IMG/VR virus record: IMGVR_UViG_3300011989_000257
Coordinates: 224,001-288,000 of that record
DNA length: 64,000 bases
From: a virus
Lineage: Duplodnaviria > Caudoviricetes
Strand: one strand, 5' to 3'
Shown: positions 46,469-63,216 of the stretch, piece by piece
Layout of the letters: the number at the start of each line of letters is the position of its first letter
Numbering within the stretch: position 1 is the first letter of the stretch
Position numbers and translations under genes: made by a program
The notes under the pieces: model-generated
What the model was told of the DNA's origin: nothing
Seen by the model: only the letters and a program-made list of their open reading frames with translations
Database searches by the model: none

Positions 46469-46867
46469 TTAATAATTTTGCATGCTTGGTATAACACCTC
46501 TCACTCCCCCTCTAGGATTTTCACAATCTCCATCATAACGAGGAATAATGTGAATATGACAATGCATAACGGTTTGTCCAGCAGCCTCACCACAATTAAC
46601 TCCAATATTATACCCATTTGGCTTGTATTTGCTATCTAATATTGTTTTCACAACACCAATTGTCACTCCAAGAGATTCAAGCTCATAATAGTTTAAATTA
46701 AAATATGTTTTACAATGCCTCTTTGGAATTAATAATGTGTGGCCTTCAGAAACTGGATATTTATCCAAAATTGCAATCCAAGTAGAATCTTGATAAATTA
46801 TTCTTTCTTTTTCAATATTACTGTCAATGTCACAAAATATACAATTATCCATTACGCTTAAATTCAA
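46469..46867 (-). CDS. HIT family hydrolase
   Basis: CIFC, YPVSEGHTLLIPKRH, GEAAGQTVMHCHIHIIPR. Confidence 0.92.
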   Translation of the reverse strand: MNLSVMDNCIFCDIDSNIEKERIIYQDSTWIAILDKYPVSEGHTLLIPKRHCKTYFNLNYYELESLGVTIGVVKTILDSKYKPNGYNIGVNCGEAAGQTVMHCHIHIIPRYDGDCENPRGGVRGVIPSMQNY

Positions 46868-47876: not shown

Positions 47877-48176
47877 TTAATCTTCGGTAATAACCTTCAA
47901 CCTTTTGAATAGTTCTTCGTGTCCGAAAACTGCTAGAGCTGTTACTTTGAAATTGAGGTCAGGTTCTTTGAACTCTGTATACTCAACATCCAAGCTTTCT
48001 AGCCTCCTCCTCCACTTAGGTACATCAGCACTTAAGTAAATCAAATAATCATTTTGCCACTCTCTACTGTAAGGATGTTCTAGCATCCATTGCGCAACTG
48101 CATGACCACCTTGTACGCATCCGTACACTGGTTTGAGCGACTTGTCAATCAAAACGTATAACTTTCTCTTCTCCAT
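47877..48176 (-). CDS. Peptidyl-tRNA hydrolase, PTH2-like
   Basis: KLYVLIDKSL...VQGGHAV, F.EPDL...TALA. Confidence 0.75.
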   Translation of the reverse strand: MEKRKLYVLIDKSLKPVYGCVQGGHAVAQWMLEHPYSREWQNDYLIYLSADVPKWRRRLESLDVEYTEFKEPDLNFKVTALAVFGHEELFKRLKVITED

Positions 48177-48553
48177 TACTCTTCTGTTGGGTCTGCATAC
48201 TTGTTATACACCTTGATTACTGCGTTCTTGAATGCTGGGATAACATAACTCTCGGTCATGTCACCACCGCTTACACCCCAACGGCCACTGTGCAACATCT
48301 TGTAACAACGGTTTCTAACCTCATCCTCAAGATATGCATCACGGTCTGCACCCTCAATACGATGCTTAAAAATGTAGTAAGCTACATAGTCAGAATGGTC
48401 TTTGTCGCAATCTGCTTTAATGTATTCTTTAAACTTAAGATACTGTTCCTTCGTGGTTTCCTTATCTGTAAAATTTTTCTTTTCCATATTAATATATTCT
48501 TTAATTTGTTTGTTATTAACTAATGATTTTAACTTTTTCACTACTTTTCCCAT
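48176..48553 (-). CDS. Hypothetical protein (alternative start at 48487)
   Basis: Translationally coupled to the PTH2-like gene. Confidence 0.65.
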   Translation of the reverse strand: MGKVVKKLKSLVNNKQIKEYINMEKKNFTDKETTKEQYLKFKEYIKADCDKDHSDYVAYYIFKHRIEGADRDAYLEDEVRNRCYKMLHSGRWGVSGGDMTESYVIPAFKNAVIKVYNKYADPTEE

Positions 48554-48637
48554 CCAAATTAAAAATACATCAGGACCACGAATCAGTTTCAGCTACCAAA
48601 ATTGGTCACAAATCTACCAAAAACTAATTTTCTTCAT
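48554..48637 (-). promoter_or_regulatory. Putative leader ORF with two in-frame TAG codons and an IRGP motif
   Basis: ATG at 48637: MKKISFW*ICDQFW*LKLIRGPDVFLIW, in frame with the ORF starting at 48553. Confidence 0.6.
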
Positions 48638-48671
48638 AATTAATTAAACTTTAAAATTGTTATTAAAAAAC

Positions 48672-48729
48672 GGAAGCTTTTACATGGTTCAGAATTTGCA
48701 GTTCCAAAAAATACTTGCTGTTAGCTTCC
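48672..48729 (-). ncRNA. ACAGCAA-family RNA carrying a Cys(GCA) anticodon stem-loop
   Basis: GGAAGCT/AGCTTCC stem, ACAGCAA, TGGAA-CTGCAAA-TTCTG. Confidence 0.7.
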
Positions 48730-48856: not shown

Positions 48857-49112
48857 ATGTTTAAAAACTTACGGATATACTTTATCAGGAATCTGGCTTT
48901 CTCTGCCGAAGACTTATTTTTACCTATCCACTCATAGGAACTTCACAGAGTGCTTCACACACCATTAGGTAGCATCGAATGAGATAGTATTCCATACGCT
49001 AGTGGAACTATATAGACATTGTTACATATCTCAATCTACATTCTTCTTAGTGTGTACCCTTGCGACAAATGTACCCACGCTAGTATATCTACGCCTCTAT
49101 CGTAAGTTTATG

Positions 49113-49187
49113 TGGACAAGATGGGACTCGAACCCACGACCCTCTGAATGCAAATCAGATGCTCTAGCCAAACTGAGCTACAAGCCC
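49113..49187 (-). tRNA. tRNA-Ala(TGC)
   Basis: Canonical cloverleaf, G3:U70. Confidence 0.9.
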
Positions 49188-49251: not shown

Positions 49252-49578
49252 CTATAGTTTCTCAACTACTTTTCCATAGATTTGGTTTTTTGATATCCAA
49301 CCATTCATGTGACCATGATTATTTCCAATTAAATACTCTTTATCATTTTTAATTGCGTGTATTAAATGCAAATAGTAATGACCCTTAACCTTGCAAAGTA
49401 CAATATCCTTTTTATTAAGTTTGGTGTCATCTTTAACTGGTTCACAAATAACCTCTTGTCCACTTTTAAGAATTGGAGTCATCGACTGTCCAAATCCTTG
49501 AAGTCTCCCAACCAATCCAGCTTTGAGTTTTTCAGCGCTTTCATGGTTTTCTTTTCCTTTAAAATCATATGGTCTCAT
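49252..49578 (-). CDS. S24/S26 peptidase-like protein
   Basis: GQSMTPILKSG, DIVLCKV, LHLI, GKV; ends in TAG. Confidence 0.7.
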   Translation of the reverse strand: MRPYDFKGKENHESAEKLKAGLVGRLQGFGQSMTPILKSGQEVICEPVKDDTKLNKKDIVLCKVKGHYYLHLIHAIKNDKEYLIGNNHGHMNGWISKNQIYGKVVEKL

Positions 49579-51122: not shown

Positions 51123-51165
51123 AAAGGTGGTTTTTCTGTTTGTCCACCACAAACAATTAATTATG

Positions 51166-51246
51166 TTGCGGAAGCAGGATTTGCACCTACGCACCTTACG
51201 GACTGGCTTATGAGACCAGTGAATTTGACTACTCTTCCATTCCGCT
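51166..51246 (-). tRNA. tRNA-Met(CAT) with enlarged variable arm
   Basis: CTGGT-CTCATAA-GCCAG; CCGTAAGG variable hairpin. Confidence 0.7.
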
Positions 51247-55846: not shown

Positions 55847-55971
55847 ATCTTTTTTTTATAAAGGTAGGCTTCCTTTACCTACCATGACTGTTAATGGTTT
55901 TTGCTAGTTCAAGGTACTAGTAGACCAAGCGCAGAGCACAGTTTCACCATAAACTCCGAAAAGGATTATTG

Positions 55972-56057
55972 CTCGCAGGGTGCGATTCGAACACACGGTA
56001 GCGCAAAGCTACGGCAGTTTTGGAGACTGCTGGGTTAAACCACTCCCCCACCTGCGA
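55972..56057 (-). tRNA. tRNA-Trp(CCA) with long variable arm
   Basis: GCAGT-CTCCAAA-ACTGC; GTAGC-TTTGC-GCTAC variable hairpin; G73. Confidence 0.8.
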
Positions 56058-59330: not shown

Positions 59331-59354
59331 TTCGTAACATTATTTAAAAATTTG

Positions 59355-59436
59355 TGCATCGTGTAGGACTCGAACCCACGTTACCGTTTCCAGTACAGAT
59401 TAAGAGTCTGTTGCATAGCCTCTCTGCCAACGATGC
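59355..59436 (-). tRNA. tRNA-Lys(CTT) with long variable arm
   Basis: ACAGA-CTCTTAA-TCTGT; ACTG-GAAA-CGGT variable hairpin. Confidence 0.8.
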
Positions 59437-63118: not shown

Positions 63119-63133
63119 ATAATATATGTCTTG

Positions 63134-63216
63134 AGACGAGGGTGGGATTTGAACCCACGTGCCTTGCGGCCAAAGGTTTTGCAGACCTAGGCGATTGACC
63201 ACTCCGCCACCTCGTC
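63134..63216 (-). tRNA. tRNA-Cys(GCA) with long variable arm
   Basis: AGGT-CTGCAAA-ACCT; GCC-GCAA-GGC variable hairpin; U73. Confidence 0.82.

Follow-up and report, generated by a model that had tools for sequence, protein, structure and literature searches.

What is the use of an amber suppressor tRNA to a phage that otherwise uses TAG as a stop? The question was raised by a stretch of 64 000 nucleotides (the window, positions 224001–288000 of the 412.5 kb, 34.5 % G+C virus record IMGVR_UViG_3300011989_000257), in which a tiny leader ORF with two in-frame TAG codons precedes two small genes and lies close to a tRNA with the anticodon CUA. The record carries 42 tRNA genes and a tmRNA, its promoters look like the Bacteroidota TTTG/TAnnTTTG type, and its relatives come from rumen samples. 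The downstream genes can probably be translated only when the tRNA overrides the stops; readthrough, stalling and regulation are inferred here and have not been demonstrated by experiment.

The leader, its neighbours and their conservation

All features described are on the minus strand. The leader opens at ATG 48637–48635 and reads M-K-K-I-S-F-W to a first TAG (48616–48614), I-C-D-Q-F-W to a second TAG (48595–48593), and then L-K-L-I-R-G-P-D; the motif TTT-TGG-TAG thus occurs twice. The core from the ATG to the Pro codon (48637–48572; Pro codon at 48574–48572) comprises 22 codons including both TAGs, and the Arg-Gly-Pro codons (CGT GGT CCT, 48580–48572) form the proposed pause site. The frame runs without TAA or TGA into ORF 48553–48176, which overlaps by ATGA a 99-aa ORF (48176–47877). 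This is followed by an intrinsic-terminator-like hairpin with a T run (47869–47836), a tRNA-Met (47677–47603) and the 92-nt tRNA(CUA) (47597–47506), about 1 kb downstream of the leader. Upstream, a structured RNA (GGAAGCT...AGCTTCC plus T run, 48729–48665) ends 27 nt before the leader ATG; in other lineages a tRNA occupies this place, and the alignment of the relatives shows a conserved GCTTCCG-T run, or a tRNA 3′ end, about 35 nt upstream of the leader ATG. The sequence TTTGGTAG often serves as the −33 part of Bacteroidota-type promoters in this genome, and TAgaTTTG in the leader looks like a −7 box, but this box is not conserved in relatives, and a promoter at this site was rejected. An Rfam search gave nothing on the leader.

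Homologues of the protein encoded downstream of the leader (ORF-X) were collected from databases (162 sequences). Most are 101–106 aa long and start at the Met that corresponds to ATG 48487 in the window, not 48553; ORF-X most likely starts at 48487 (48487–48176; a conserved 103-aa core, MEKK...AYYIFKHR...GG[DE]). The longer database entries carry Gln where the window has TAG, but these residues are TAG codons that a gene caller read with code 15. A scan of viral contigs anchored on the ORF-X protein alone gave 21 loci, of which 20 have the leader. The long type is M-(K/R)-(K)-(x)-S-F-W-TAG-x4-(F/H)-W-TAG-L-x-(x)-(I/V)-R-(G/S)-(T)-P, and one variant has a single TAG (MRIVCYNGDAT-TAG-LKKIRGP). 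Distant lineages (49–54 % ORF-X identity) have a short type: MKQFW-TAG-INDLGFP-stop, MKQKW-TAG-IDIRGFP-stop, MKQFW-TAG-IFNNGFP-stop and MRQHW-TAG-ITIRGFP-stop. Three still more distant ORF-X genes have no leader. A specific DNA pattern identified 15 viral and 63 metagenome stretches, of which five were chance hits and the rest were leaders; a looser 14-base pattern gave mostly chance hits. The leaders represent 49 distinct DNA versions, each followed by ORF-X wherever the contig is long enough. These pattern-derived loci were selected for TAG, so that only the 21 + 7 protein-anchored loci are unbiased. The leader is far from a chance occurrence.

The 99-aa gene follows ORF-X immediately in all 24 loci examined. 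The original prediction had called its product PTH2-like, and this holds at the level of the predicted fold only. No Pfam match (PF01981 being the Pth2 family) was obtained at E values up to 1 for the protein and up to 10 for 21 homologues, and there was no PDB sequence hit; PHROG gave phrog_3668 “hydrolase” (3.7e-7). The structural model (pLDDT 83.5) was compared with known structures by using Foldseek, and the 13 best hits are all Pth2 or Pth2-like chains (probability 0.72–1.0, TM 0.5–0.7), headed by 2zv3, 1xty, 1wn2, 3erj and 1q7s (probability about 1, TM 0.6–0.7). ORF-X gave a confident, all-helical AlphaFold model (pLDDT 91.6), but no lead was obtained from Pfam, PHROG (E < 0.001), PDB sequence, Foldseek, VIA-align (best Z 4.9) or Atlas searches. 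No release factor and no bacterial-type Pth were found in the genome.

A homologous tRNA(CUA) lies 0.1–2 kb from the leader in every leader-bearing lineage examined. It is located 0.3–2 kb downstream in the long-leader lineages, in several lineages only about 40 nt after the PTH2-fold gene, and about 100–130 nt upstream of the leader in the short-leader lineages, where ARAGORN missed two copies because the loop reads C-C-CUA-A-A. The tRNA family has G1-C72 and A73, and its variable arm ranges from 5 to 22 nt, so that its amino acid identity cannot be read from class; in this phage, its anticodon arm equals that of the phage tRNA-Tyr except at position 34.

Contigs assembled from RNA libraries of four rumen studies cover ORF-X, and one bridges the leader and ORF-X (48364–48678). 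As contigs cannot show transcript ends or exclude DNA carry-over, this is weak evidence and only compatible with expression; several short contigs from related strains end near 48582, and these ends were taken as assembly break points rather than RNA ends.

The TAG codons of the leader

To establish whether TAG is recoded throughout this phage, the genome was analysed under alternative codes. Standard-code ORFs of 150 aa or more cover 72 % of the genome, and reading TAG as sense adds no more than reading TGA as sense does. Only five long ORFs would be joined by TAG, against 23 for TGA and 57 for TAA, and 36 of 424 simple gene calls end in TAG. The one joined candidate with a family hit, a sigma factor, is two genes, as relatives have TAA at that place and a separate downstream gene. 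The genome therefore uses the standard code, the suppressor tRNA is an “orphan”, and the leader TAGs are the only conserved in-frame TAGs that were found.

All leader-bearing loci found through the protein alone carry TAG at the gate positions, and TAA, TGA or a sense codon was never seen there in this set. A second and sometimes a third in-frame TAG is present. By contrast, the true stop of the leader in 27 separate leaders is TAA (14) or TGA (13) and never TAG; this asymmetry is what a UAG-specific reader predicts. Beyond the second TAG, codons change while the amino acids are kept: Arg is encoded by CGT, CGA, AGA or AGG, Pro by all four of its codons (CCT, CCA, CCG, CCC), Gly by GGT or GGC, Ser by AGC or AGT, and Phe by TTT or TTC. 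In the eight codons after the second TAG, synonymous differences make up 32 %, 44 % and 88 % of codon differences in the leader frame in three clades, against 2–20 % in the two other frames. Length differences come in whole codons (MKKNSFW against MKSFW), and the Arg-(Gly/Ser)-(x)-Pro segment is kept at the amino acid level across lineages with ORF-X proteins that are only about 50 % identical. Selection thus acts on the peptide downstream of the TAGs, from which it is inferred that the leader is translated through UAG.

The alternative that the TAGs are plain stops, with a seven-codon uORF as the only translated part and everything downstream conserved as RNA only, is consistent with the helix described below, which includes the CC of the Pro codon (part of the conservation of this codon could therefore be at the RNA level), and with the presumed presence of RF1 in the host. 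It is unlikely, however, because Arg codons lying outside the helix switch between CGN and AGR while Arg is kept, because the synonymous excess is frame-specific, because a plain stop could equally be TAA or TGA, and because of the additional in-frame TAGs and the adjacent tRNA(CUA).

The frame relationship between the leader and ORF-X was then compared in 52 distinct arrangements. In 25 of these the two are fused in frame, as in the window; in 12 the leader is in frame +1, in 12 in frame +2 and in three it is stop-separated in frame 0. The spacing from leader ATG to ORF-X ATG is 107–205 nt, mostly 145–156 nt, and separate leaders end 0–9 codons after the Pro in most cases. The spacer (48571–48488, containing ATG 48553) is open in the leader frame in this phage and closed by stops or frame shifts in about half of the relatives. 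The element is therefore a leader and not an N terminus, and the continuation into the downstream frame, which the original prediction had stressed, is specific to some lineages. A reading in which TAG is simply a sense codon (for example Gln) and the leader is the N-terminal 50 residues of a 153-aa ORF-X gains support from the 25 fused arrangements, from the RGTP clade, in which the linker keeps its frame through indels, and from gene callers that read these ORFs with code 15. It is nevertheless improbable, as the leader is still conserved in the 27 separate arrangements, TAG never alternates with CAA, CAG or any other sense codon over about 50 % protein divergence, the genome shows no recoding, and most homologues start at the MEKK Met. 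In the fused arrangements readthrough would also make an N-terminally extended protein that may matter in itself.

Pairing of the leader with the ORF-X start

Minimum-energy folds of the stretch from the leader ATG to the ORF-X ATG were computed for 13 loci. All pair the segment at or just after the Pro codon with the region just upstream of, and including, the ORF-X ATG, although the paired sequences differ in each lineage; examples are CCGTAATTGT with ACAATTATGG, GATATATTTT with AAAATATATC, and a 17-bp pairing in one locus (L150). For 52 distinct arm pairs, own-lineage duplexes average −19.5 kcal mol−1, against −11.5 for cross-lineage pairs and −8.7 for shuffled arms; in 45 of 52 cases at most 1 % of shuffles reach the own value. 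The helix is A/U-rich and has no single register across all lineages, and global consensus folding with RNAalifold gave no structure; clade-wise folding was needed to find it. In the RGPD clade (20 sequences), 97.1 % of cells are paired, against 33–61 % with slid partners; five pairs show compensatory changes, and 0 of 500 shuffles reach the score. In the RGTP clade (19 sequences), 99.6 % of cells are paired, against 24–54 % when slid, and three pairs are compensatory, including a clean T-A to C-G and G-C to A-T switch.

In the window, the 5′ arm (48582–48556) pairs with a 3′ arm (48508–48477) that covers about 20 nt upstream of the ORF-X start codon (ATG 48487–48485), the start codon itself and the first codons. 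The pairs are TTC 48582–80 with GAA 48479–77, TCC 48575–73 with GGA 48485–83 (including the G of the ATG), and TGTAT/TTT 48569–62 with 48500–93, extending to 48556 and 48508. The 5′ arm is present in both the MFE and the centroid fold (z = −2.0 for the fold), and the pairing of the G of the ATG plus GA with TCC of the Gly/Pro codons is found in all 20 sequences of the RGPD alignment.

The last TAG lies 6–8 codons before the Pro codon in all 52 arrangements. If a ribosome unwinds about 11–15 nt beyond the first base of the P-site codon, as is to be expected from ribosome footprints, it would reach about 48585–83 with UAG 48595–93 in the A site, short of the main helix, and about 48564–62 with Gly and Pro in the P and A sites, which would cover exactly the conserved 5′ arm. 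A trans-acting micropeptide of 13–31 aa, the synthesis of which needs suppression and which is linked to ORF-X only by genomic position, would account for selection on the peptide sequence and for the small variation of its length and C terminus within clades. This is very unlikely, as it does not explain the covarying pairing with the ORF-X start, the fixed distance from TAG to Pro, or the tolerance of fusion to ORF-X in half of the lineages.

A proposed amber-gated switch and related systems

The explanation that we consider probable is a cis-acting, amber-gated leader peptide that controls translation of the ORF-X/PTH2-fold operon. It is proposed that the ORF-X start region is locked in the long-range helix, and that a ribosome starting at the leader ATG meets UAG at codons 8 and 15. 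If release factor 1 wins, the ribosome leaves 18–24 nt or more short of the helix, and ORF-X stays masked. If the phage tRNA(CUA) decodes both UAGs, the ribosome would reach the Arg-Gly-Pro segment and pause there (at Gly-Phe-Pro-stop in the short-leader lineages), thereby freeing the ORF-X start for a second ribosome; the PTH2-fold gene would follow by translational coupling through the ATGA overlap. Two gates in series would make the output a steep function of suppression efficiency. That the tRNA decodes these codons, that the ribosome pauses and that unmasking raises expression are inferences, as is a role in coping with or tuning suppression, for example through peptidyl-tRNA recycling; the physiological logic remains a guess. 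The original prediction of a leader that senses UAG readthrough is supported, and the TAG codons and the Arg-(Gly/Ser)-(x)-Pro segment proved to be conserved in homologues; start-site unmasking by the helix is added here.

The same switch might respond to a different input: release factor 1 activity or host state, the suppressor tRNA of a co-infecting recoded phage, or merely the time needed for the phage tRNA to accumulate. UAG decoding is a competition between RF1 and the tRNA, the genome has no release factor gene of its own, and Borges et al. (bioRxiv 10.1101/2021.08.26.457843) speculated that recoding could let a phage sense the suppressor tRNAs of another. This possibility is considered unlikely, as the strict co-occurrence with the phage’s own tRNA(CUA) points to that tRNA as the key.

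The design resembles leader-peptide translational attenuation of the ermC/ErmCL type and arrest-peptide switches (SecM-secA, MifM-yidC2), in which the 3′ part of a short upstream ORF pairs with the translation start region of the next gene and a ribosome held on the leader opens the helix. It differs in its proposed input, which is the decoding of one to three in-frame UAG codons by a dedicated tRNA(CUA) instead of a drug or secretion activity, and in the absence of a Shine–Dalgarno sequence, the masked element being an A-rich Bacteroidota-type start region. The leader can also be compared with RAPP-like arrest peptides (ApdA and ApdP, RAPP; ApcA, RAPG; SecM, RAGP; RGPP variants; PMC12992588, PMC10951233, PMC10951299), with which it shares a conserved Arg followed by a small residue and Pro near the end of a small upstream ORF. 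However, R-G-P-D in the window, and R-G-T-P, R-S-P-G/N/D and (R/L/N)-G-F-P-stop in relatives, do not fit the core R-[A/G/S/D]-[P/G]-P (PMC12992588), so that a pause is only plausible; there is also no signal or membrane segment, and the downstream genes are not part of the protein-localisation machinery. A TnaC-type leader is not supported either, as the Trp-to-Pro spacing is 6–9 residues (apparently 12 in TnaC), Pro is not the last codon in most lineages, and no rut-like C-rich spacer is present.

Autoregulation of RF2 (prfB; Craigen and Caskey 1986) likewise appears to use an early in-frame stop codon as a sensor of how efficiently that stop is read, but there escape is by +1 frameshifting and the release factor is sensed, whereas here escape would be by a suppressor tRNA and the output would be unmasking of a separate ORF. 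In engineered switches with TAG inserted into tna/trp-type leader peptides (reviewed in PMC6412442, section 6), translation beyond UAG by an orthogonal tRNA(CUA) turns on downstream genes, and multiplexed UAGs sharpen the response; those switches are synthetic and act on Rho-dependent transcription termination, whereas this one is natural, phage-encoded and apparently translational. TAG-recoded (code 15) genes of Lak and crAss-like phages (Borges et al.; PMC9523058) also combine a phage-encoded tRNA(CUA) with in-frame TAG codons that block translation until the tRNA is present, but in the present genome the TAGs sit in a leader and are invariant, and are not scattered through late genes and interchangeable with Gln codons. 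Borges et al. describe suppressor tRNAs in standard-code relatives of recoded phages but no such leader, and no description of this arrangement was found in our literature searches.

The leader would give a concrete, conserved target to the suppressor tRNAs that many standard-code phages carry without an obvious reason. It would be a natural counterpart of the amber-codon switches built in synthetic biology, a compact part that responds to tRNA(CUA), and would bring stop-codon decoding as a new input to the old leader-peptide attenuation design. It is about as likely as not that such phages use their orphan tRNA as the key of a dedicated lock, a two-UAG, ultrasensitive leader that measures the current UAG-decoding state of the cell and switches on a small ORF-X/PTH2-fold module; this would be the first natural sensor of genetic-code state and a plausible first step on the road to full TAG reassignment in phages. 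The finding also bears on how stop-codon reassignment starts in phages; here one regulatory use of UAG would precede any recoding of structural genes.

RNA upstream of the leader and flanking genes

An unannotated stretch of about 250 nt (window 48860-49110, minus strand) was located between tRNA-Ala (49112-49187) and the leader region, and showed the highest depth of RNA-library contigs in four rumen studies (up to about 930). No Rfam match was obtained for this stretch, and its fold energy was not better than that of shuffles. Closer to the leader, a hairpin (GGAAGCT...AGCTTCC; window 48665-48729, minus strand) is followed by a T run and ends 27 nt before the leader ATG. The 3′ half of this element (GCTTCCG plus T run) is conserved in relatives, and in other lineages a tRNA 3′ end sits at the same place, which suggests that the 5′ end of the leader mRNA is made by processing of a tRNA/ncRNA transcript. 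The tRNA/leader region is flanked by a HIT-family hydrolase gene (Pfam, 1.5e-21) and a small S24-peptidase-like gene (window 46469-46867 and 49252-49578, minus strand).

Further TAG codons

In one clade, comprising leaders of the type found in the related loci L007, L008, L009 and L012 (region corresponding to window 48595-48572), a third in-frame TAG was identified three codons after the Pro (..IRGPDIF-TAG-FEWEI-stop), that is, inside the 5′ arm of the helix. The phage sigma-70-family gene (genome 397516-398241, minus strand; locus L224) ends in TAG and is followed in frame by another ORF; relatives have TAA there, so this is not a readthrough site.

tRNA genes

Suppressor-tRNA homologues in two related loci (L021, positions 2646-2716; L023, positions 2621-2693) carry the anticodon loop C-C-CUA-A-A, with C33 in place of U33; they were missed by ARAGORN but were found by using the Rfam tRNA model. 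Across relatives, the variable arm of this tRNA family ranges from 5 to 22 nt. In the window, tRNAs with Trp, Cys, Lys and Met anticodons (55971-56057, 63133-63216, 59354-59436 and 51165-51246, minus strand) carry long paired variable arms (82-87 nt), and keep the discriminator base expected for their anticodon (G73, U73, A73).

Terminator and promoter modules

Recurrent modules consisting of a terminator hairpin plus a promoter were observed genome-wide, for example at genome positions 187360, 181639, 172815, 244528, 26730 and 306876 (minus strand). In these modules TTTGGTAG supplies the -33 TTTG, 20 nt upstream of a TAnnTTTG -7 box, which points to a Bacteroidota host.
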